Both the position numbers and the translations under genes were made by a program. Shown here in pieces: positions 1-40,883 of a stretch of 40,883 nucleotides of DNA. The notes under the pieces are model-generated. The model saw only the letters and a program-made list of their open reading frames with translations, searched no databases and was not told the origin of the DNA. The first letter of the stretch is position 1; the number at the start of each line of letters is the position of its first letter. This DNA is from a virus (Duplodnaviria; Heunggongvirae; Uroviricota; Caudoviricetes): the IMG/VR virus record IMGVR_UViG_2923334124_000004; one strand, written 5' to 3'.

Positions 1-390
1 TTACTCTTTTTTCTCCGTATCTGCATCGGGTTCATCAGCAAATAGCTTGCCCTGCATCCGATCCAGTTCTTCTTTTCTTACCCGCTTAACCACGCTGTAG
101 ACCCACTGAAGCGAAACACCAAATTTGCGGGCCAGTTCGTGGTGGTTGCGTCCGTTAAACTCCCTGAAGATTTCCCGGTCGCGCTGACTGACCTTCCATA
201 CCATGCCCATCGGGAAATAAACGTTTTGCCCGCCCCAGACCTGCATCATTCGGTTCGCGACGGCCTGACCAATCTGGTCGGCAACTTCGGGCTCAATATC
301 AATAATCTCGCGAACGGTCTCAGAGGTATGCTGTGCCAGTTCCACCAGGAGTTCCGGCCCCTTACTTCGAAACTGATTCAGGTCGCTCAT
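1..390 (-). CDS. mor: Mor/C-family transcriptional activator (middle/late operon regulator)
   Basis: 129 aa; C-terminal region GGQNVYFP...FNGRN..ELARKFGVS..WVYSVV is typical of Mu Mor/C activators; ATG at 388-390, stop TAA at 1-3 (minus strand). Confidence 0.65.
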   Translation of the reverse strand: MSDLNQFRSKGPELLVELAQHTSETVREIIDIEPEVADQIGQAVANRMMQVWGGQNVYFPMGMVWKVSQRDREIFREFNGRNHHELARKFGVSLQWVYSVVKRVRKEELDRMQGKLFADEPDADTEKKE

Positions 391-3842: not shown

Positions 3843-5009
3843 TTAAACCCCTTTGACAACGTCAGCGTTGACCTGTGGAACCCCGATTTCAGCGGCCAGA
3901 TTCATGGCGGCTATTACCAGGTTACTGACGGCCAGCGGATACAGCAGGCTGACCATATTTTTACGGTGACTTCCCGGATTGCTCAGGCGGGCACGTATGG
4001 CATCCACTGCACCGGCGTCCATAATGTCCGTCAGCTGTTTACCGGCCCGTTGCAGTTTGAACGTCAGAAATTCTTCAAGGTTATTGTCCAGAGGCAGAAG
4101 TTCGACCACCTCACAGCGCTGAACGACTTCACGGACTTCCATATTGCGTTCAGACAGTTTTGTCGCCAGTTCCGGCTGGCCAATCAGCACGATGGACAGC
4201 AGTTTTTTGAAACCGGACTCCAGCTCAAAAAAGCGTTTGAGGTGTTTCAGTGTCGGAATGGGCAGACTGTGGGCCTCCTCAATCACCAGAACGTGGCTGA
4301 ACCCCGCCTGGCTGCTGTCTTTCAGGACGCGATGCAACTGGCGAAAACGGGCGTCCTGACTGCGTCTGATGCTTTCCAGTGGTGCGATGGTACTGATAAT
4401 GGCTTCGGCAATAGCTGCTGCCTTCAGGGTTTTCCCTTTCACATCGTTGTCTTCCATAGCGATGATGTATGGCTCGATAACAATTACCGGCGCATTCTCG
4501 CGGTTGATACGTTCAGTCAGGTCGCGGCGCAGCGTGGATTTACCCGCACCGGACTCACCGATGACGGCCATAAACCCACCATGACGGGCTGTCTGGTACA
4601 GCGCCTCACGCACGTAGCGAATGTCCGGGGTGGTGAACACATCATCAGAACCCTGCATGGCTTCGTCGGCGAACGGGTCACGGAAAAGACCAAACGCTTT
4701 TTTGGTTGCTGGAAATAACACCTGTTTTTTGAGTAACATATTCTCTTCCTCACTGAGGCTCGTTTTATCTGTGGTACCCGCTGTACGGGGCGTGGCCGCG
4801 CCCTGTACAGCATCAAAACTCTTCGTTGTATCAATCCCCTGACTTTCCAGCCAGGACGCAAGACGCCGGCGCACTTCTCCGGGGCTGGTGCGGGGCCACG
4901 CGTTATGATTCACAATCTGGGCCAGCGTGGCCTCAGAAACATCGACAGCTCTCGCCACCACCGCCTGTGGAATACGGGCCTCTTTCAGTTGCTGCTTCAG
5001 TACCAGCAT
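3843..5009 (-). CDS. MuB-like transposition ATPase (AAA+)
   Basis: Walker A IGESGAGKST; immediately downstream of the transposase; start set to ATG 5007-5009 preceded by AGGAGG (the track ORF begins at an upstream GTG, 5048). Confidence 0.8.
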   Translation of the reverse strand: MLVLKQQLKEARIPQAVVARAVDVSEATLAQIVNHNAWPRTSPGEVRRRLASWLESQGIDTTKSFDAVQGAATPRTAGTTDKTSLSEEENMLLKKQVLFPATKKAFGLFRDPFADEAMQGSDDVFTTPDIRYVREALYQTARHGGFMAVIGESGAGKSTLRRDLTERINRENAPVIVIEPYIIAMEDNDVKGKTLKAAAIAEAIISTIAPLESIRRSQDARFRQLHRVLKDSSQAGFSHVLVIEEAHSLPIPTLKHLKRFFELESGFKKLLSIVLIGQPELATKLSERNMEVREVVQRCEVVELLPLDNNLEEFLTFKLQRAGKQLTDIMDAGAVDAIRARLSNPGSHRKNMVSLLYPLAVSNLVIAAMNLAAEIGVPQVNADVVKGV

Positions 5010-5019
5010 GTTTCCCTCC

Positions 5020-6789
5020 TCAGTTGCCGTTAACAATGCTGATAACACTGCTGCGGGCCGGTGTGGTCAGCGTGGCCATGACTTCATCCAGTGCGGCTTC
5101 CGGTACGCCGTCCGGGTACTGTGCCGTTAACTGGCGGTAATGTTCCGGCGTCCAGGTAAGGCCGTCGGCGCTGAACTTATCGCGCAGGGCTTTCGCGGCC
5201 TCCACATGAGTCATGGGACGTTGTTCAGTGCGCGGCCCGCGTACGTCAGAGGCCTGACCACGCTTCGGCATATAGGCCGGAAGTGTGGTGTCGTCGATAT
5301 GTTTATACGGGTCAAGCCGCCCGCCGAACGGCAGCGCCTTCGCCTTGCGTGCGGCGGCTGCATCTGCGGCGTTGTCTGTACCGGTAACCAGCGCTTCGGT
5401 TTCTTTTGCCGCCATCTGTGCCGGGGTTTCCGGCAGGGCTTTGTAACTTTCGCCAAATACCGCCGCGCCTTCAGCAAAGCCAAACTCGTTCTTTCTGACC
5501 TCTTCGACCAGGAAGAACGTCTCGTGGCCGTCCTCACCGGTCAGAACCACCTGTGCCACATCGCTGCGCCATGGGTTACGGGTAATCATCAGTTTTTCAC
5601 CAACCAGTACGCCCGGTACCGTTGATACGTCAAATTCAGTGCCCCGGAACGAGACACGAAGTTTTGGCGTGACTTTGCGGAGTTCTGGTGCCGCCACAGC
5701 CAGTTCACGACATACCTCAACGGAAGGCGCTTTTTTCAGCTGCTCAGCAGTAATCTTCAGCCAGATATCCGTGCGGGTTTTACCGTGGCGGCTGTGAACA
5801 GCCGTGGCGTTAAAGTGGCTGCGCCATTTCGCGGCCAGCGCGTTGAGTTCTTCCAGACTGTGAACCGGCCGGAACTTCAGACCCGGCTCCAGCTTGCGTT
5901 CGATAATGTCACGCGCCTTTTCCACCTGTCCGGTGGCGCGGGCGTTATGCGGCTTGTGCGCTATCAGGTCGATGCCCAGTGAGCGGCACATGTTTTTCGT
6001 CATACCCGCGGTGTTTGCCGAGCCGGGGTCGAGATAGAGTATTTTCGGCACGCCGTGCAGCACGTCTGCGCCGCCACGCTCCTGCATGGCGTTGATAAGC
6101 ACAGAACACAGGTTCTCACCTGATTCCGCGCCCGTCACATACTCAACGTAAATCCAGCCGCTGGCATGGTCGGTAATCTCGTAACTCCACACGCGGTCAC
6201 TGGCGATACGGGCAAGGTTAGCGGGCTTGTTCTTGTAGAACTTCGCGCTGTCCATCACCTGCAGCCCTTTATGTCCATTGCTCAGGTAGTAAAGCGTGCA
6301 GAGTGAGGCGTCAATCTGCCAGACATGATTGGGATGCAGACTGGCCACTTCGGTATGTGGTGCAGGGGCATCCAGTTGTTCCGGGTGCAGGCCATAGTTA
6401 CGCAGAGCACGGCTGATGGCATCTTCAGACAACGGGAAAAACTCACTGGTGGTTTCATCTGTTCTGCCTGCGGTGATAAAGCCGTTAGCCCGCAGGGTTT
6501 CCACTGCATCTGCGATGGAATAGAGACGCTTACCGTTCTTGCGGGTGGCCTCACGCAGTGTGGCAGATATCAGCGCGGCTTCGTCGCGGGTCAGGGCGCT
6601 GCGCCCGGCATCGGCGCGTTTTTTGCGTTTATCAGTCACAGATACCTCCTTCAGCCTGCGCAGCAGAGTGGCGCGGGACATGCCAAGTTCAGCACAGGCA
6701 GCGTCGTATATTGCACCGCGTTTACCATGCCCCGCGTCACGTGCCGCGCGGGCTGTTTCAACCAGTTTTTCAGTCAGTGCCGGGGTCAT
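5020..6789 (-). CDS. DDE transposase, MuA-like (integrase core domain)
   Basis: 589 aa; N-terminal HTH region, integrase-core motifs (HVWQIDAS...YLDPGS), followed by the B-like ATPase; the right terminus carries Mu-like CATTTATCG repeats. Confidence 0.8.
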   Translation of the reverse strand: MTPALTEKLVETARAARDAGHGKRGAIYDAACAELGMSRATLLRRLKEVSVTDKRKKRADAGRSALTRDEAALISATLREATRKNGKRLYSIADAVETLRANGFITAGRTDETTSEFFPLSEDAISRALRNYGLHPEQLDAPAPHTEVASLHPNHVWQIDASLCTLYYLSNGHKGLQVMDSAKFYKNKPANLARIASDRVWSYEITDHASGWIYVEYVTGAESGENLCSVLINAMQERGGADVLHGVPKILYLDPGSANTAGMTKNMCRSLGIDLIAHKPHNARATGQVEKARDIIERKLEPGLKFRPVHSLEELNALAAKWRSHFNATAVHSRHGKTRTDIWLKITAEQLKKAPSVEVCRELAVAAPELRKVTPKLRVSFRGTEFDVSTVPGVLVGEKLMITRNPWRSDVAQVVLTGEDGHETFFLVEEVRKNEFGFAEGAAVFGESYKALPETPAQMAAKETEALVTGTDNAADAAAARKAKALPFGGRLDPYKHIDDTTLPAYMPKRGQASDVRGPRTEQRPMTHVEAAKALRDKFSADGLTWTPEHYRQLTAQYPDGVPEAALDEVMATLTTPARSSVISIVNGN

Positions 6790-9137: not shown

Positions 9138-9170
9138 ACCGGAAAGCATTGTGCTTTCCGGTTTTGTTTC
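9138..9170 (+). terminator. rho-independent terminator downstream of the repressor gene
   Basis: Stem ACCGGAAAGCA / TGCTTTCCGGT with 3-nt loop, followed by TTTGTTTC. Confidence 0.55.
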
Positions 9171-9933
9171 AGAAGTTGCAGATTAGCAGTTCACGGCGCG
9201 GCGTGGGTTTACCCGCCAGACTGTAGTTGATATTCACTGTCTGTATGTTCAGTCCAGTGAACACCTCGCGCATCTGCGGGATGTCGTTCACCGAAATTAT
9301 CATTTTTCCTCTGATGCACCGGGCCAGCTCTGCCAGCCGCGAGTAGTTCCCTTCAGGAAAATCCACACCATAGCCTTCCGTACCCAGGTACGGTGGGTCG
9401 CAGTAGAACAGCGTGTGCGGACGATCATAACGCTCAATGCACTGTTGCCAGTCCATGTGTTCTATGACTGTTCTGGAAAGCCGCAGGTGTGCCGCTGACA
9501 GTTCTTCTTCAATACGTAGCAGGTTGAAGCGTGGCGGGGATGTGGTGGAGGTACCGAAGCTGTGCTCTGCCACCTTGCCGCCAAACGCCTGCTTCTGAAG
9601 GTAGTAGAACCGTGCCGCACGCTGGATATCCGTCAGTGTTTCTTCCGGGGTGATCTGCAGCCATTTGTAGATCTGACGGCTGACCAGCGCCCATTTGAAC
9701 TGGCGGACAAATTCTTCCAGGTGATGCTTTACCACCCGGTACAGATTCACCAGTTCACCGTTGATATCATTGATGACTTCGATCTTGCCGGGTGTCTTAA
9801 GAAAATAGAGCGCTGCTGCCCCACAAAACGGCTCCACATAACATTCATGCGCCGGAAACAGCGGCAGAATGTGTTTTGCAAGGCGGCGTTTGCCACCAAT
9901 CCACGGCACGATGGGTAATGTCTGCATTTTCAT
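9169..9933 (-). CDS. Dam-family N6-adenine DNA methyltransferase
   Basis: N-terminal PWIGGKRRL...FCGAAAL (AdoMet-binding) and DPPY catalytic motif; start set to ATG 9931-9933 (the track ORF runs to 10023). Confidence 0.8.
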   Translation of the reverse strand: MKMQTLPIVPWIGGKRRLAKHILPLFPAHECYVEPFCGAAALYFLKTPGKIEVINDINGELVNLYRVVKHHLEEFVRQFKWALVSRQIYKWLQITPEETLTDIQRAARFYYLQKQAFGGKVAEHSFGTSTTSPPRFNLLRIEEELSAAHLRLSRTVIEHMDWQQCIERYDRPHTLFYCDPPYLGTEGYGVDFPEGNYSRLAELARCIRGKMIISVNDIPQMREVFTGLNIQTVNINYSLAGKPTPRRELLICNF

Positions 9934-10123
9934 AATCTGCAAGCCTTTTACAATTATTAAAAAATATGGCAGTCTGGTCAGGTCTCGCGAGACTGACTGA
10001 ACCTTGGTCGGCTCACAGCGCATTCCTGTGGGGCGATGACCAGCCCGGCTTTCGGGTGCCGGGCTGGTCGTTCTTTCATGATGCGGCAGGGATGGCGGGA
10101 TTTCTGTTAATGTGGTTTAGGGA

Positions 10124-14483: not shown

Positions 14484-14777
14484 CAAAATCATCCGGAGTG
14501 ATTTTAAACGCCGCTGGCGGCGGCCCCGAAGGGATGAGTCCCATGGACGGGAGGAATAACCTTGCTCCCGTTTTGCCTGATACCTCGGCGCTGGATGCCC
14601 CTCCCGTTCTGTTGCCTTACCAGCAGCGCTGGGTGGCAGACACCTCTCCGCTTAAGGTGATAGAAAAGAGCCGTCGTACCGGTATTACATGGGCTGAGGC
14701 ATCCGATAACGTACTGACCGCCGCCTCTTCTGCGCCAGCAGGCGGGATGAATGTGTATTACATCGCTTATAACCAGG
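14480..14777 (+). pseudogene. terminase large subunit, 5' fragment (interrupted by an IS66-family element)
   Basis: The reading frame runs into the IS at 14778; joining 14777 to 17318 restores one continuous frame (...YNQ-D-MTVEYIQ...) of about 531 codons. Confidence 0.7.
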
Positions 14778-14862
14778 GTAAGCGTAAACTGACCGCCGTA
14801 TGTAGCCATCAGACGAGAATTGGTAACTTAGACGCCCATCTGATATAGACGGACATCTAAGT

Positions 14863-15288
14863 ATGGAATTACAGGACTGGCGAAAAGAACCTCGTAAAAA
14901 CTATTCGAATGAATTCAAACTTCGTATGGTGGAACTGGCATCACAACCTGGAGCTTGTGTTGCACAGATTGCACGTGAAAATGGCGTCAATGATAATGTT
15001 ATTTTCAAATGGCTCAGGCTCTGGCAGAACGAAGGGCGTGTTTCGCGGCGTCTTCCGGTAACGACCTCTTCTGACACTGGCGTTGAATTATTACCTGTAG
15101 AAATAACGCCGGATGAGCAGAAAGAACCTGTGGCGGCCATTGCGCCGTCTTTATCCACTTCCACTCAGACCAGAGTCAGTGCCAGTTCCTGCAAGGTGGA
15201 ATTCCGTCACGGTAACATGACGCTGGAAAATCCATCGCCAGAGCTGCTCACAGTGTTGATCCGTGAACTGACCGGGAGGGGAAGATGA
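14863..15288 (+). CDS. tnpA: IS66-family accessory protein TnpA (orf1)
   Basis: 141 aa, first ORF of the IS; HTH-like N-terminus typical of IS66 orf1. Confidence 0.7.
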   Translation: MELQDWRKEPRKNYSNEFKLRMVELASQPGACVAQIARENGVNDNVIFKWLRLWQNEGRVSRRLPVTTSSDTGVELLPVEITPDEQKEPVAAIAPSLSTSTQTRVSASSCKVEFRHGNMTLENPSPELLTVLIRELTGRGR

Positions 15289-15635
15289 TCTCACTCCCAT
15301 CAGGTACCCGTATCTGGCTCGTTGCCGGCGTTACCGATATGCGTAAATCCTTCAACGGACTGGGAGAACAGGTACAACATGTGCTGAATGATAATCCCTT
15401 CTCCGGTCACCTGTTTATCTTCCGTGGCCGACGGGGTGACACCGTCAAAATTCTTTGGGCTGATGCTGATGGTCTGTGCCTGTTCACCAAACGCCTGGAG
15501 GAAGGCCAGTTTATCTGGCCTGCGGTACGTGACGGCAAGGTATCCATTACCCGCTCGCAACTGGCAATGCTCCTCGATAAGCTGGACTGGCGTCAGCCAA
15601 AAACATCCAGCCGTAACTCACTGACAATGTTGTAA
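15285..15635 (+). CDS. tnpB: IS66-family protein TnpB (orf2)
   Basis: 116 aa; overlaps orf1 by 4 nt as is usual in IS66; conserved IS66 orf2 character. Confidence 0.7.
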   Translation: MISLPSGTRIWLVAGVTDMRKSFNGLGEQVQHVLNDNPFSGHLFIFRGRRGDTVKILWADADGLCLFTKRLEEGQFIWPAVRDGKVSITRSQLAMLLDKLDWRQPKTSSRNSLTML

Positions 15636-15665
15636 AAAACTCCTGACCGCATTATAAAAACGGTC

Positions 15666-17279
15666 ATGAGTCAGAAATACCTCATTCGCATCGCAGAGCT
15701 GGAAAGGTTGCTCTCTGAGCAGGCTGAAGCCCTCCGTCAGAAAGACCAGCAACTGAGTCTGGTTGAAGAGACGGAAGCCTTCCTGCGCTCTGCACTGACA
15801 CGTGCCGAAGAAAAGATCGAAGAAGATGAACGGGAAATAGAACATCTGCGGGCTCAGATAGAAAAACTGCGCCGGATGCTGTTCGGTACCCGTTCTGAAA
15901 AACTGCGTCGTGAAGTTGAACTGGCTGAGGCTCTGCTGAAACAACGTGAACAGGACAGCGATCGTTACAGTGGGCGGGAAGACGATCCTCAGGTTCCCCG
16001 CCAGTTGCGACAGTCGCGCCATCGTCGTCCGTTACCGGCACACCTTCCCCGTGAAATACACCGCCTGGAGCCAGAAGAAAGCTGTTGCCCGGAGTGTGGC
16101 GGTGAGCTGGATTATCTGGGGGAAGTCAGCGCTGAACAGCTGGAACTGGTGAGCAGTGCCCTGAAAGTGATCCGCACAGAACGGGTAAAAAAAGCCTGTA
16201 CAAAATGTGACTGTATTGTTGAAGCACCGGCGCCGTCCCGCCCGATAGAGCGTGGTATCGCGGGCCCCGGATTACTTGCCCGCGTGTTAACGGGAAAATA
16301 CTGCGAACATCTGCCACTGTATCGTCAGAGTGAAATCTTTGCCCGCCAGGGTGTCGAACTGAGCCGGGCCTTACTCTCCAACTGGGTTGACGCGTGCTGC
16401 CAGTTAATGACACCGGTGAATGATGCCCTGTACCGTTATGTAATGAACACCCGCAAGGTTCACACTGATGACACACCGGTAAAGGTACTGGCACCGGGTC
16501 AGAAAAAGGCGAAAACAGGGCGTATCTGGACGTATGTCCGGGATGATCGCAATGTGGGTTCGTCATCTCCTCCAGCGGTCTGGTTCGCGTACTCGCCGAA
16601 CCGGCAGGGGAAACACCCGGAGCAACACCTCCGCCCCTTCCGGGGTATCCTGCAGGCGGATGCGTTCACAGGTTACGACAGGTTGTTCAGTGCAGAACGT
16701 GAAGGTGGTGCACTGACAGAAGTTGCGTGCTGGGCCCATGCCCGGCGAAAAATCCACGATGTATACATCAGCAGCAAAAGTGCGACGGCAGAAGAAGCCC
16801 TGAAGCGAATCAGTGAACTGTACGCCATCGAGGATGAAATACGGGGATTACCGGAGTCAGAGCGTCTTGCCGTCAGGCAGCAGCGAAGCAAAGTGTTACT
16901 GACGTCGCTGCATGAATGGATGGTGGAGAAGAATGGTACGCTGTCGAAAAAATCCAGACTGGGCGAAGCGTTCAGCTATGTACTGAATCAGTGGGATGCC
17001 CTCTGTTATTACAGTGATGACGGTCTGGCGGAGGCGGATAATAATGCTGCGGAAAGAGCGCTTCGTGCAGTCTGTCTCGGAAAGAAAAACTTTATGTTCT
17101 TTGGCAGCGATCACGGCGGCGAGCGTGGAGCACTGTTGTACGGGCTGATCGGCACCTGCCGTCTGAACGGTATCGATCCGGAAGCGTATCTGCGCCATAT
17201 CCTGAGCGTACTGCCGGAATGGCCTTCCAACCGAGTTGACGAACTCCTGCCATGGAACGTAGTACTCACCAATAAATAA
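15666..17279 (+). CDS. tnpC: IS66-family transposase TnpC
   Basis: 537 aa; N-terminal leucine-zipper-like coiled coil, CxxC...CxxC zinc motif (CPECG...CTKCD), and a DDE-type core, typical of IS66 transposases. Confidence 0.8.
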   Translation: MSQKYLIRIAELERLLSEQAEALRQKDQQLSLVEETEAFLRSALTRAEEKIEEDEREIEHLRAQIEKLRRMLFGTRSEKLRREVELAEALLKQREQDSDRYSGREDDPQVPRQLRQSRHRRPLPAHLPREIHRLEPEESCCPECGGELDYLGEVSAEQLELVSSALKVIRTERVKKACTKCDCIVEAPAPSRPIERGIAGPGLLARVLTGKYCEHLPLYRQSEIFARQGVELSRALLSNWVDACCQLMTPVNDALYRYVMNTRKVHTDDTPVKVLAPGQKKAKTGRIWTYVRDDRNVGSSSPPAVWFAYSPNRQGKHPEQHLRPFRGILQADAFTGYDRLFSAEREGGALTEVACWAHARRKIHDVYISSKSATAEEALKRISELYAIEDEIRGLPESERLAVRQQRSKVLLTSLHEWMVEKNGTLSKKSRLGEAFSYVLNQWDALCYYSDDGLAEADNNAAERALRAVCLGKKNFMFFGSDHGGERGALLYGLIGTCRLNGIDPEAYLRHILSVLPEWPSNRVDELLPWNVVLTNK

Positions 17280-17317
17280 GCGTCAATACGGTGCTCCGTT
17301 GACGCTTACTAACCAGG

Positions 17318-35845: not shown

Positions 35846-37095
35846 TTATGGGAAACCTGAATGAAACAGAAAAGTGGGAAGAAAATATCTATCAACTGGA
35901 GACATCAGATCCGGTTCTGGGTGGTGCAGACGGGATATCAAATCGAGCCCCCCGGCAACTGGCAAACAGGACGAAATGGCTGAAGAAGAAAACGGAGGAA
36001 GCCGCACAGTCACTGGCTGAACACGTACGTTCCCGTAACCACCCGGACGCGACACTGACAGCTAAGGGGTTCACCCAACTGAGCAGTGCCACCAACAGCA
36101 CCTCTGAAACGCTGGCCGCCACACCAAAAGCGGTCAAGGCTGCATACGACCTGGCAGCCGGCAAGGCGCCTGCCAGCCACACTCACCCGTGGAGTCAGAT
36201 AACGGGAGTGCCTGCGGCTTCACTGACGGCAAAAGGCACCGTACAACTGAGCAGCGCCACGGACAGTCAATCAGAAACTGAGGCTGCCACGCCGAAGGCG
36301 GTCAAGGCTGCATACGACCTTGCAGCCGGCAAGGCGCCCGTCAGCCACACTCACCCGTGGAGTCAGATAACGGGAGTGCCTGCTGCCTCGCTGACGGCAA
36401 AAGGCACCGTACAATTGAGCAGTGCCATCAACAGCACGTCTGAAATACTGGCCGCCACACCGAAAGCGGTCAAGGCTGCATACGATCTGGCAAACGGAAA
36501 ACAACCGGCAGATGCCACGCTCACTGCTCTGGCAGGACTTGCCACTGCAGCAGATCGGTTGCCTTATTTTACCGGAGCAGACCGCGCAGAGCTGGCAACC
36601 CTTACAGCTATTGGTCGCGCTATTATCGCTAAGGGCAGTATAAAAGATGTCCTCAATTACCTTGGTTTGGGGGAAGGCTCGGCGCTGCCCGTTGGTGTAC
36701 CTGTTCCGTGGCCCACTGCCACACCGCCAGCAGGCTGGTTAAAGTGCGACGGGCGCGCCTTTACAAAAGAACAATATCCTGTTCTGGCCAGAGTCTACCC
36801 GACCCTCCGTCTTCCCGATTTACGCGGTGAGTTTATCCGTGGATGGGACGACGGGCGAAAAGTGGATACAGGGCGCGATCTGCTTTCACGGCAGGATGGT
36901 ACAAGTTTTTCTCATTACGCAGGTAATTTTGACATTGGGTCTGGTCATTCAATCAATAACTATGACCAAATCGTTGACAACCAACCTGGATTCTCCCGTT
37001 TTTCATTTGCAGGTCCTTCGCGAGGCGATGGGGTTAATTATGTGACCATTCGTCCCCGTAACATTGCGTTTAATTACATCGTAAGGGCGGCATAG
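35842..37095 (+). CDS. tail fibre protein; constant N-terminal part fused to variable C-terminal cassette a
   Basis: 417 aa; three 56-aa fibre repeats; the C-terminal region begins at a Gin-type crossover-like site and is shared with two other cassettes. Confidence 0.8.
   Translation: MIMGNLNETEKWEENIYQLETSDPVLGGADGISNRAPRQLANRTKWLKKKTEEAAQSLAEHVRSRNHPDATLTAKGFTQLSSATNSTSETLAATPKAVKAAYDLAAGKAPASHTHPWSQITGVPAASLTAKGTVQLSSATDSQSETEAATPKAVKAAYDLAAGKAPVSHTHPWSQITGVPAASLTAKGTVQLSSAINSTSEILAATPKAVKAAYDLANGKQPADATLTALAGLATAADRLPYFTGADRAELATLTAIGRAIIAKGSIKDVLNYLGLGEGSALPVGVPVPWPTATPPAGWLKCDGRAFTKEQYPVLARVYPTLRLPDLRGEFIRGWDDGRKVDTGRDLLSRQDGTSFSHYAGNFDIGSGHSINNYDQIVDNQPGFSRFSFAGPSRGDGVNYVTIRPRNIAFNYIVRAA
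36055..36530 (+). repeat. tail-fibre tandem repeats (about 2.8 x 168 bp) within the fibre gene
   Basis: Period of 168 bp confirmed from GGAGTCAGAT at 36191 and 36359; protein repeat TAKG..QLSSA..S.SE..AATPKAVKAAYDLAAGKAP.SHTHPWSQITGVPAASL. Confidence 0.8.
36650..36675 (+). other. Gin/Hin-type crossover-like site 1 (TCCTCAATTACC-TT-GGTTTGGGGGAA), inside the fibre gene
   Basis: 12-2-12 layout whose right half GGTTTGGGGGAA resembles the gix/hix half-site GGTTTTGGATAA as I recall it; marks the start of about 200 bp shared by all three cassettes. Confidence 0.5.
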
Positions 37096-37114
37096 AAACG
37101 TTGGTTTGGGGGAA
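37089..37114 (+). other. Gin/Hin-type crossover-like site 2 (GGCATAGAAACG-TT-GGTTTGGGGGAA), direct orientation
   Basis: Same right half-site and TT core as site 1; overlaps the fibre stop codon; begins the homology of the silent cassette. Confidence 0.5.
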
Positions 37115-37567
37115 GGCTCTGCATTGCCTGTTGGTGTACCGGTTCCATGGCCCACCGCCACACCGCCAGCAGGCTGGTTACAGTGCAACGGAGCTACGTT
37201 CACCAAAGAACAATATCCTGTTCTGGTCAGAGTCTACCCGACCCTCCGTCTTCCCGATTTGCGCGGTGAGTTTATCCGTGGATGGGACGGTGGTCGCAAG
37301 GTTGATACCGGGCGTGCGCTACTTTCATTTCAGGAAGGGACTATCGTATCCGGTTTTGATGATAATGATACCGGAGATATCAGTTCGCTCGGCTCTACAC
37401 AATACGGATTTGGTGACGCTTTAACCTCTAATCAACTGGGGGTCTTAAATGGCAAAAAGTGGATATTTGATGCATCCTCTAAAGGTGCACAAAGATATGA
37501 CTGGTGGGCTTATGTATCAGCTCGCCCCCGCAATATCGCATTTAACTATATCGTGAGGGCGGCGTGA
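37106..37567 (+). other. silent alternative tail-fibre C-terminal cassette b (promoterless, no start codon of its own)
   Basis: Begins GEGSALPVGVPVPWPTATPPAGWL... like the expressed fibre C-terminus, then diverges; in phase with the fibre constant part relative to the TT core; the track M is a TTG artefact. Confidence 0.55.
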
Positions 37568-37573
37568 TACCGT

Positions 37574-38188
37574 TCAGCCGGCAAGCGCCAGTGGCGCTTC
37601 CGGCCAGCTGATTTCAGGTGCCTTGCTGATATCCAGTGCGTTCAGCTCGTCGATATAATCCAGCACGGCGTTCAGTTTTGCCGTTTCTTCTGGTTTCAGA
37701 CTGCGACCAGCACGCAGTTTGAGGTTGATAAGATCGACGGACGCCATCGCCTGTTTCACCCGTTGCTGGCGTTGCTGTCTGGCAACCTCCAGTTCTGCGG
37801 CTCGCTGCCGTTCAGTATCGGTTACCCACGCCTCACCGTTCCAGGTATCCCATGGCGTGGCTGGCTGTTTTGTGGTGGTGTCCGCCGGGTAATCACCCGG
37901 TTGGGTAATCAGAACGGGGTTACCGTTCTCCGTGCTGTATACCGTCTCGCCGCGGTGATCAGGCACATGCTCCCACCCGTTCAGCGTGGCAGTCCGGCAA
38001 ACCACGTAACCCGAAATTGCTTCCGGCGGTGCATCGGCGCACGAATGTGCCGGAGTACCCACCCCAAGGGCGAGATACTCCACAGAGGATGAGGTGTATT
38101 CCCGGGTTTCCTCGTCATAGTGATATACAGTGATATCGCCCGCTACAGTGGCGATACCGTTTTCATCCAGAACTGCAGTGTTACTCAT
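37574..38188 (-). CDS. tail fibre assembly protein (Tfa/U-like)
   Basis: 204 aa; VYHYDEETREY and C-terminal DYIDELNALDISKAPEISWPEAP are typical of Tfa chaperones; start overlaps the stop of minus-strand cassette c (TAATG). Confidence 0.7.
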   Translation of the reverse strand: MSNTAVLDENGIATVAGDITVYHYDEETREYTSSSVEYLALGVGTPAHSCADAPPEAISGYVVCRTATLNGWEHVPDHRGETVYSTENGNPVLITQPGDYPADTTTKQPATPWDTWNGEAWVTDTERQRAAELEVARQQRQQRVKQAMASVDLINLKLRAGRSLKPEETAKLNAVLDYIDELNALDISKAPEISWPEAPLALAG

Positions 38189-38691
38189 TAAACTGCCCTC
38201 ACAATGTAATTAAGTGCAATGCTACGGGGTCTGACAGTGATACCCTTCGCATACCCGCTTCTGATAGAGGTCAGAATAGTAGCCTGCATACCATTGTCTG
38301 ACATTGCCACGACAGGATCGCTGAATGTTGTCCCGTCCGGCATTTTAAAGCTGCCCTCACGAAGGTCTGTAATGGAATCTTCATTGTTGAATCCCATGCC
38401 GACTATCCCCGAGGTTCCCGTAGTGTCCTGGTTATAATAATCCAGCATTGCTGTTCTTAACAGCGTTGCCCCTTGTGCGGACAGCAACTTACGTCCTGTA
38501 TCAACTTTGCGCCCGTCGTCCCATCCACGGATAAACTCACCGCGTAAATCGGGAAGACGGAGGGTCGGGTAGACTCTGGCCAGAACAGGATATTGTTCTT
38601 TTGTAAAGGCGCGCCCGTCGCACTTTAACCAGCCTGCTGGCGGTGTGGCGGTGGGCCACGGAACAGGCACACCAACGGGTAGCGCCGAGCC
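38188..38691 (-). other. silent alternative tail-fibre C-terminal cassette c (inverted orientation)
   Basis: The minus-strand frame reads GEGSALPVGVPVPWPTATPPAGWLKCDGRAF... from the crossover site and then a distinct C-terminus; it would fuse in frame to the fibre constant part after inversion. Confidence 0.6.
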
Positions 38692-38717
38692 TTCTCCTAA
38701 ACCAACGTTTATCTCTC
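38692..38717 (-). other. Gin/Hin-type crossover-like site 3 (reads GAGAGATAAACG-TT-GGTTTAGGAGAA on the minus strand), inverted orientation
   Basis: Inverted counterpart of sites 1 and 2 with the same TT core; lies about 55 bp upstream of the invertase gene. Confidence 0.5.
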
Positions 38718-38771: not shown

Positions 38772-39344
38772 ATGCTGATTGGCTACATACGTGTGTCAAC
38801 AAATGACCAAAACACAGATTTGCAACGCAATGCATTAATGTGCGCAGGATGTGAACAGATTTTTGAGGACAAAATGAGCGGAACCAAGTCGGAACGACCA
38901 GGCCTGAAACGCGCTTTAAAGTGCCTTAAAAGAGGGGATACATTGGTGGTCTGGAAGCTGGATCGGTTGGGTAGAAGAATGAAACACCTCATTGCTCTCA
39001 CAGAAGAGCTACGCGCAAAAGGTGTCAATTTTCGCAGTCTGACGGATTCAATCGATACCAGCACTCCGATGGGAAGGTTCTTTTTTCATATGATGGGTGC
39101 ACTGGCAGAAATGGAGCGTGAACTGATAGTTGAGCGCACGCTGGCTGGACTGGCTGCTGCGCGAGCACAAGGAAGAGTTGGAGGACGTCGCCCGAAACTG
39201 ACGAAGGAGCAGCATGAGCAGATCGCAAGATTGCTCCAGAAAGGGTATGACAGAAAGCGGCTGGCAATTATCTATGATATTGGACTGTCAACGATCTACC
39301 GCTATCACCCTGTTGGGACTGTCATAACGCAACCTGAAATGTAA
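38772..39344 (+). CDS. serine DNA invertase (Gin/Pin/Hin/Cin family)
   Basis: MLIGYIRVSTNDQNTDLQRNAL...VVWKLDRLGR...MGALAEMERELI is the resolvase/invertase catalytic domain with the active-site serine; C-terminal HTH; ATG 38772 preceded by GGGAG. Confidence 0.85.
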   Translation: MLIGYIRVSTNDQNTDLQRNALMCAGCEQIFEDKMSGTKSERPGLKRALKCLKRGDTLVVWKLDRLGRRMKHLIALTEELRAKGVNFRSLTDSIDTSTPMGRFFFHMMGALAEMERELIVERTLAGLAAARAQGRVGGRRPKLTKEQHEQIARLLQKGYDRKRLAIIYDIGLSTIYRYHPVGTVITQPEM

Positions 39345-39376
39345 TTCTTTTTCAAATAATGAAACGCCGCGTGGAT

Positions 39377-39429
39377 GCCATTTATCGCACAAGATAGAGT
39401 GCATTTATCGCGCGGCGCATCATTCTTCA
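39377..39429 (+). repeat. prophage right terminus with two direct CATTTATCGC repeats (candidate transposase binding sites) and terminal ...CTTCA
   Basis: GCCATTTATCGCAC (39377-39390) and TGCATTTATCGCGC (39400-39413), 23 bp apart; the last bases CATTCTTCA resemble the Mu right end. Confidence 0.55.
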
Positions 39430-39527
39430 TGTGAATCATCCGTTGATTAATTATATATAAACATTATGTATCAACAAGTTACATTGATAATTAACGCTAC
39501 CATTAATAAAAATACCCCACAAGGTCC

Positions 39528-39556
39528 GAAAAAAAACGCCGGCAATGTGCCGACGT
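39528..39556 (-). terminator. rho-independent terminator of aroA (host)
   Basis: The minus strand reads CGGCACATTGCCG GCG TTTTTTTT about 45 bp downstream of the aroA stop. Confidence 0.5.
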
Positions 39557-39599
39557 CTTTGAAAAGAAAGGATTGTCTATGTTATCGCCCGTTATTCAT

Positions 39600-40883
39600 T
39601 CAGCCGGGTTGACTTATCCGCGCCAATTGCTCGAAATAGTCTGGAAAAGTTTTAGCGGTACATTTTGGATCAAGAATCGTCACAGGCGTATCTGATAATG
39701 CGACCAGCGAGAAACACATCGCCATCCGGTGATCATTATAAGTGGCGATCTCAGCAAATTTCAGTTTTTCCGGTGGCGTAATGCGAATGAAATCATGCCC
39801 CTCTTCGACTTCCGCACCGACTTTACGCAGTTCTGTTGCCATCGCAAACAGGCGATCGGTCTCTTTAACACGCCAGTTATAGATATTGCGCAGCGTGGTG
39901 GTGCCTTTTGCAAATAACGCCGCGGTGGCAATGGTCATCGCCGCATCGGGAATATGGTTCATATCCATATCAATGGCGTTCAGTTCACCACGCGTGCAGG
40001 AAATATAATCATCGCCCCAGCAAATGGTCGCGCCCATTTTTTCCAGAACATCAGCAAAGCGAATATCACCCTGCATACTGTTGCGTCCAATGCCGGTCAC
40101 TTTTACAGTGCCGCCTCTGATTGCTGCTGCTGCCAGGAAATAAGAAGCCGAAGATGCATCGCCTTCAACCAAATAAGTGCCCGGAGACTGGTAAGACTGC
40201 CCCCCTTTTACGACAAATTGTTGATAGTGCTGATTTTCAATTTCAACACCAAACGTCTTCATCAGATTGAGGGTGATATCGATATAAGGTTTAGAAACCA
40301 GATCGCCTTTAATACGAATCACCGTATCTTCCGGCGCAAGAGGCGCAGTCATTAACAGTGCGGTGAGGAACTGGCTGGAAACGGAGCCATCAACATCAAC
40401 GTTGCCGCCAGTAAAGCCGCCCTGTAAACGCAATGGCGGATAATTTTCTTGTTCCAGGTAAGTGATCTTCGCCCCGCCCTGGCGCAGCGCATCCACCAGA
40501 TGACCAATCGGGCGTTCTTTCATTCGCGGTTCACCGCTCAGTACAATATCATTGCTACCCAGGCAAAGTGCTGCCGCCAGCGGACGCATTGCCGTTCCGG
40601 CGTTACCGAGGAACAACTCCCGGGCACTTTCTGCGTGTAATGGACCACCGTTACCGATAATTTCGCAACGCGTACGATCGGCTGAAAGCGTATAGCTTAC
40701 CCCTAACGCTGTTAATGCATTCAGCATATGGCGCACGTCATCGCTATCCAGCAGATTGGTTAATACTGTTTTGCCGTGTGCTAATGCCGCCAGCAATAAA
40801 GCGCGGTTAGAAACGCTCTTGGAACCGGGCAGATTAATAGTGCCATCGACACGAGCGATGGGTTGTAACGTTAGGGATTCCAT
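39600..40883 (-). CDS. aroA: 3-phosphoshikimate 1-carboxyvinyltransferase (EPSP synthase)
   Basis: 427 aa, full length (ATG at 40881-40883); N-terminus [35 protein letters not shown] and overall sequence match enterobacterial AroA. Confidence 0.95.

Follow-up and report, generated by a model that had tools for sequence, protein, structure and literature searches.

The segment at 39377-39422 of the window, that is, of the whole 40,883-bp stretch of DNA that was analysed, is very probably where a transposable prophage of BcepMu-like type, published as Phi2 of the E. coli ST131 clone, has its right attachment end. The prophage reads 5'-TGAT...ATCA-3' and its last base is the A of the terminal CA at 39422 (...GCGCATCA). 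It is flanked by a 6-bp target-site duplication, TTCTTC, whose right copy lies at 39423-39428 and corresponds to nt 3-8 of the ycaL open reading frame on the minus strand. The window contains this single prophage, running from its leftmost gene, a Mor-family late activator (1-390, minus strand; Pfam Mor, E 1e-43), to the right end, and then the host gene aroA. The right end thus belongs to a known phage family and to a named prophage, and its biology is ordinary and already known. The prophage itself had been published; what is corrected is the junction, together with the duplication, the family and the outcome for the host.

The position of the junction was determined by comparison with genomes in which the site is empty. 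A 401-bp junction query was run against 5426 complete E. coli genomes and found matches in 5313 of them, with full coverage in 358 only. In the remaining matching genomes, which carry the empty site, the alignment begins at query base 123, corresponding to window position 39422, and other queries agree. In other words, host sequence begins at 39422/39423, seven bases earlier than the original prediction, which had placed the end of the element at 39429 and the junction at 39429/39430. In strain DA33135, the empty site reads ...CAGCAATAATTTAGTATTCTTCATGTGAATCATCC..., in which CAT is the annotated ycaL start codon on the minus strand, and the sequence across the target is ...GTATTCTTCATGTGA. At the right junction in the window, phage sequence ...GCGCGGCGCATCA, ending in ...CATCA, is followed by TTCTTCATGTGA. 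The left end of the prophage is located 163 bp beyond window position 1, as the window begins at the Mor stop codon, and no inverted counterpart of the right end turned up in a search of the window. The left junction was therefore read from strain 4/1-1, which carries the identical insertion. There, ...GTATTCTTC is followed by TGATTAGACTTGAGATAAATG, the phage side opening with TGATTAG; in a longer reading, ...TTTAGTATTCTTC is followed by TGATTAGACTTGAGATAAATGACAGGG. TTCTTC is present at this left junction and TGTGA, which had been proposed as a 5-bp target, is absent. The stretch ...CTTCA, previously read as a Mu terminus, is host DNA, complementary to the beginning of ycaL (ATG AAG AA, minus strand). 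The likeness of this host start, ATGAAGAA, to a Mu tip puts a terminus called by resemblance to Mu off by 7 bp. A MuA-type end at 39429 is ruled out by the empty-site and left-junction comparisons.

One base, A39422, is ambiguous if only the ycaL locus is considered, as the empty site has an A in this position too. Its assignment was settled by insertions at unrelated E. coli sites, namely in irp2, cbtA and ssuB, which share the same tips and have exact 6-bp duplications (CCTGAG, GTTCAC and TCGAGA, respectively). The tips TGATTAG...GCGCATCA are found at all four E. coli loci, and in copies inserted elsewhere the similarity to the window stops at 39422 (query_to 523-526). Likewise, a relative in Serratia nevei is flanked by the duplication CATAGC and one in Erwinia tracheiphila by AGATGC. 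All six independent insertions of this phage type (four in E. coli, one in Serratia and one in Erwinia) have 5'-TGAT…ATCA-3' tips and a 6-bp duplication, which places the prophage end at 39422. No paper was found that states the exact Phi2 ends, the 6-bp duplication or the split of ycaL. The three sister prophages knock out genes in other E. coli lineages: irp2, encoding the yersiniabactin synthetase HMWP2, in cS91a, the toxin gene cbtA in MLI121, and ssuB in 30348_1#195.

The right end itself is built of two imperfect direct repeats of 23 bp. Tandem direct repeats past the invertase had been part of the original prediction, and a string check of the window located them where predicted, with GCCATTTATCGCAC at 39377-39390 and TGCATTTATCGCGC at 39400-39413. 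They belong to an inner repeat, R2 (39377-39399, plus strand; core CATTTATCGC at 39379-39388), and a terminal repeat, R1 (39400-39422, plus strand; core at 39402-39411), whose 3' end is the prophage tip. No third binding site inward of R2 was seen by eye. Are these repeats sites for the transposase? The exact 10-mer CATTTATCGC occurs at only two sites in the window, 39379 and 39402, which are 23 bp apart, and by arithmetic any given 10-mer should have about 0.08 exact copies on the two strands of the window. When one mismatch is allowed, there are 4 copies compared to 2.45 expected, which is not unusual. This ordinary count would agree with the pair being a chance or regulatory repeat, for instance part of a gin terminator or an operator, and the significance of the motif therefore comes from its position and from its conservation in related phages.

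Read inward from the tip, the right end of the window prophage is TGATGCGCCGCGCGATAAATGCACTCTATCTTGTGCGATAAATGG and its left end is TGATTAGACTTGAGATAAATGACAGGGAATAAGTGAGATATTTATGG, while BcepMu reads TGAAGAGAGGTGAGATATTTCCAAGGGAGAACGCGCGATATTTCC at its left end and TGAAGCGCGGCGCGATATTTCAGCACGTCGACGCGCGATAAATTC at its right end. All four ends contain G[A/C]GATA[A/T][A/T]T (GMGATAWWT) twice, first at nt 12-20 and then at nt 35-43, with a period of 23 bp. R2, read from the tip, has GCGATAAAT at nt 35-43, in the register of both BcepMu ends and of the left end of the same prophage, where the two sites are inverted. The variant left end of the E. coli prophage in ssuB, which also has two extra small genes beyond Mor, retains the register. 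Further evidence comes from a search of species-representative genomes with the two-site end pattern, for which about 9 chance matches were expected by calculation. The pattern was found in at least 120 of these genomes, mainly Beta- and Gammaproteobacteria. Protein similarity within 8-kb blocks linked 22 of 120 pattern-matched loci to phage genes, and many of these blocks contain little phage-side sequence next to the match, so that the family-wide count is suggestive rather than exact. A chance or regulatory repeat would not be expected to keep the same register at both ends of one prophage, in the ssuB variant, in BcepMu at only 68% transposase identity and in so many genomes, and that explanation is highly improbable. 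Position and conservation instead point to R1 and R2 as putative transposase-binding sites. Imperfect direct repeats of 23 bp have been proposed as the transposase recognition site in phiE255 and BcepMu (PMC2920897).

The right end was found in 593 genomes, in 358 of which, out of the 5426 examined, it forms the identical junction at ycaL; in the other ~235 it lies elsewhere. Carriers of the ycaL junction include EC958, JJ1886, JJ1887, JJ2434 and other O25b:H4-ST131 strains, with 100% identity to the junction query in EC958, JJ1886 and further ST131 genomes. A single junction in 358 genomes, together with a serine recombinase encoded beside it, might suggest a site-specific prophage with an attachment site at the ycaL start that has integrated there by repeated targeting. 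However, the recombinase, encoded by the last gene before the right end (38772-39344, plus strand; Pfam Resolvase, E 1e-50, and HTH_7) and annotated in strain 4/1-1 as a 573-bp recombinase, is a small invertase of the Gin/Hin type that flips a tail-fibre segment. It is the sole recombinase found, and no integrase with a fixed attachment core accompanies it. Furthermore, near-identical phages reside in irp2, cbtA and ssuB next to unrelated 6-bp duplications, and the right end occurs at other places in the ~235 further genomes. Where carriers of the ycaL junction are named, they are ST131 strains, for which common descent suffices: Phi2 was reported for ST131 clades B and C and as absent from clade A (PMC4659465). 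The recurrence in 358 genomes therefore reflects clonal inheritance and not site specificity, and targeted integration is very hard to sustain as an explanation.

The identification of the transposable prophage as Phi2 agrees with published descriptions of this element. The right end lies next to the invertible segment that was published for prophage Phi2 of EC958 (PMC4134206). EC958 Phi2 is the same element, and a deposit of it under the name Escherichia phage PhiKM (PQ738613) is assigned to Bcepmuvirus. Over 90% of the first 25 kb, the sequence of PhiKM is 100% identical, as is its transposase; a literature search for PhiKM returned only phiKMV-type false matches. The window copy differs from EC958 Phi2 and PhiKM in having its terminase gene interrupted by a 2.5-kb insertion of the IS66 family.

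This IS66-family element (14778-17308; 2531 bp) has three open reading frames, inverted repeats GTAAGCG...CGCTTAC and an 8-bp duplication, TAACCAGG, at 14770-14777 and 17309-17316. Its junction is common to 3 of the 5426 E. coli genomes (Esc30, Esc31 and BLSE177-2012), and identical copies of the element are present in lambdoid phages. It splits the large-terminase gene, so DNA packaging by the window copy is probably impossible and this copy is probably unable to make particles. The tail-fibre segment (36664-38703; ~2.05 kb) is inverted relative to strain 4/1-1, with gix-like crossover sites …GGTTTGGGGGAA at 36664 and …GGTTTAGGAGAA on the minus strand at 38703, and a third at 37103. This inversion is consistent with Gin-mediated switching; an invertase and an invertible tail-fibre segment were described for Phi2 of EC958 (PMC4134206). 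An orphan DNA adenine methyltransferase gene (9169-10023, minus strand) is the counterpart of M.EcoMIV in EC958 Phi2, an enzyme whose recognition site was given as undetermined and which was reported absent from ST131 clade A (PMC4659465).

The family assignment comes from the transposase, the gene order and the ends. The DDE transposase is encoded at 5020-6789 on the minus strand, and rve is its only Pfam match. It is identical to BcepMu gp09 at 394 of 581 residues (68%, E = 0) and 56% identical to the transposase of Pseudomonas phage B3, and BLASTP detected no similarity to MuA (best E 0.48). In a tblastn search of 50,697 phage records, the transposase matched BcepMu- and B3-type phages; Mu was not among the matches listed (40 of 69 records), nor among the Escherichia matches listed. 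Next to it, an ExeA-like AAA+ ATPase (3843-5048, minus strand; Pfam AAA_22, E 4e-20) occupies the position of the BcepMu gp08 'DNA transposition protein'. It is the gp08 counterpart and a functional analogue of MuB. The early genes, encoding the transposase, the ExeA-like protein, Gam, GemA and Mor (Pfam Gam and Mor were found), are oriented leftward, and those for lysis, head and P2-like tail rightward, in an order that is colinear with BcepMu.

The window prophage thus shares with the Burkholderia phages BcepMu (NC_005882) and phiE255 leftward early genes that end in GemA and Mor, rightward late genes with a P2-like tail, TG...CA tips and two 23-bp repeats per end in the GMGATAWWT register. 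Like a BcepMu-type phage, it has a gp09-homologous rve transposase and is found at many unrelated insertion sites. The tips differ, as they are TGAT.../...ATCA in the window prophage and TGAAG.../...CTTCA in BcepMu. The right arm differs as well, with gin and the invertible tail-fibre segment in place of the acyltransferase gp53 of BcepMu. TG...CA termini and a Tn552-like rve transposase have been stated for BcepMu relatives (PMC2628397), and replicative transposition with variable host DNA on packaged genomes was reported for BcepMu and phiE255 (PMC2920897). BcepMu gp09 is annotated as 'Tn552/IS1604 rve transposase', after elements that are small transposons and not phages. Tn552 duplications are reported to be 6-7 bp. 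The BcepMu prophage of B. cenocepacia NCTC13227 (270179-306926) has no flanking duplication, its flanks being ...gagcatg on one side and aattgga on the other, which leaves the type phage without a demonstrated 6-bp duplication. The missing duplication may be due to a later rearrangement. The papers on KS10, phiE255 and the Shewanella and Pseudomonas Mu-like phages do not give a duplication length for BcepMu.

The right end had been predicted to be a Mu-like terminus. This was correct in that the prophage is transposable in the style of Mu and carries tandem sites, but its type is BcepMu-like, with an rve/Tn552-type transposase and not MuA. Mu (AF083977) is likewise transposable, with TG...CA tips, transposase sites in tandem over its final ~50 bp, and gin with an invertible tail-fibre segment near the right end. 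In Mu, however, com and mom lie between gin and the end, the early genes are oriented opposite to those of the window prophage, and MuA is unrelated in sequence to the window transposase. Mu-type ends contain 22-bp CGAAA(A) sites, three per end, whereas the last 80 bp of the window prophage contain no CGAAA and two sites are evident. The 9-mer CATTTATCG occurs once in Mu, in the second right-end MuA site from the tip, and the rest of the end differs. The target duplication of Mu is 5 bp. A MuA-type right end finishing in ...CTTCA at 39429, with a TGTGA duplication and a harmless position in the aroA-ycaL spacer, is practically untenable: although the Mu end reads ...GCCGCTTCA, its second right-end site contains GCATTTATCG and the window reads ...CATCATTCTTCA (39418-39429) followed by TGTGA, the bases at 39423-39429 (TTCTTCA) are host sequence in every empty site, neither the left junction nor the copies elsewhere fit such an end, the transposase is not a MuA relative, and all six paired junctions have duplications of 6 bp and not 5.

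How would the BcepMu-like prophage have arrived at this site? In the model suggested by the gene content and the ends, the rve-type DDE transposase would bind R1 and R2 and the matching inverted sites, L1 and L2, at the left end. It would then pair both ends, aided by its AAA+ partner, and the 3'-OH of each terminal CA would attack the target with a 6-bp stagger, the repair of which would leave the 6-bp duplication.

The two host genes at the insertion site fare differently. The gene aroA, encoding EPSP synthase, is intact (39600-40883, minus strand; Pfam EPSP_synthase, E 1e-148; RefSeq annotation), and the insertion is ~177 bp past its stop codon, in agreement with the ~170 bp originally predicted. 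A terminator on the aroA strand had also been predicted. It was recovered by RNA folding at about 39529-39560 as an intrinsic terminator with a 12-13-bp stem, a 3-nt loop and a U8 tract, and this region is 100% identical in empty-site genomes. No terminator was detected by the consensus scans, either close to aroA or at the left end; for aroA, the reason may be that A-U pairs can extend the stem into the U tract. It had further been proposed that the element occupies the intergenic region 3' of aroA without disturbing aroA or its terminator. This was borne out for aroA and its terminator, which are untouched, but the insertion falls within codons 1-3 of ycaL, in the target GAAGAA.

Since the target is nt 3-8 of ycaL, the promoter and ATG of the gene stay at the right end, and the remaining part of the gene is found ~37-39 kb away at the left end. 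The orphaned start codon is found at 39428-39430 on the minus strand, and the same ATG is annotated as the ycaL start in an empty-site genome. From it, the ycaL leader and ATG read into the phage end as a fusion ORF of 41 codons (39305-39430, minus strand), antisense to the 3' end of gin. A weak promoter-like site at 39463-39490 on the minus strand, with 9 of 12 matches in a consensus scan, is a candidate ycaL promoter. At the left junction, the remainder of ycaL is identical in sequence and has no in-frame ATG, GTG or TTG before native codon 7. RefSeq annotates it (39327-40109 of the strain 4/1-1 locus) as starting at a non-canonical ATT within the left end of the phage, giving 783 bp and 260 amino acids as opposed to 765 bp and 254. 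The remainder lies directly downstream of the leftward early/middle operon of the phage. A consensus scan detected no terminator between Mor and the left tip, which makes phage read-through into ycaL conceivable. Because ycaL is separated from its promoter and ATG and has no canonical start before codon 7, it is likely, judging from the sequence, that its expression is reduced or depends on the prophage.

It may be, though this is put forward tentatively, that ycaL is cut from its promoter, ribosome-binding site and ATG in all ST131 genomes with Phi2 at this site. Similarly speculative is the idea that the insertion is not neutral, with YcaL lost in a pandemic lineage or expressed only by prophage read-through. 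The ycaL product is an M48 lipoprotein protease linked to the surveillance of outer-membrane protein assembly. Literature searches found no paper mentioning both ycaL and ST131, and no relevant paper on a Mu-like element together with aroA and ycaL.

A correction of 7 bp thus alters the inferred duplication, the family assignment and the consequence for the host gene. The ST131 prophage Phi2 now has exact boundaries, 5'-TGAT...ATCA-3' with a 6-bp duplication, and enterobacterial BcepMu-like phages produce 6-bp duplications as compared to 5 bp for Mu. In ST131, the start codon of ycaL is where a prophage that marks the lineage interrupts the gene, and an envelope phenotype is conceivable.
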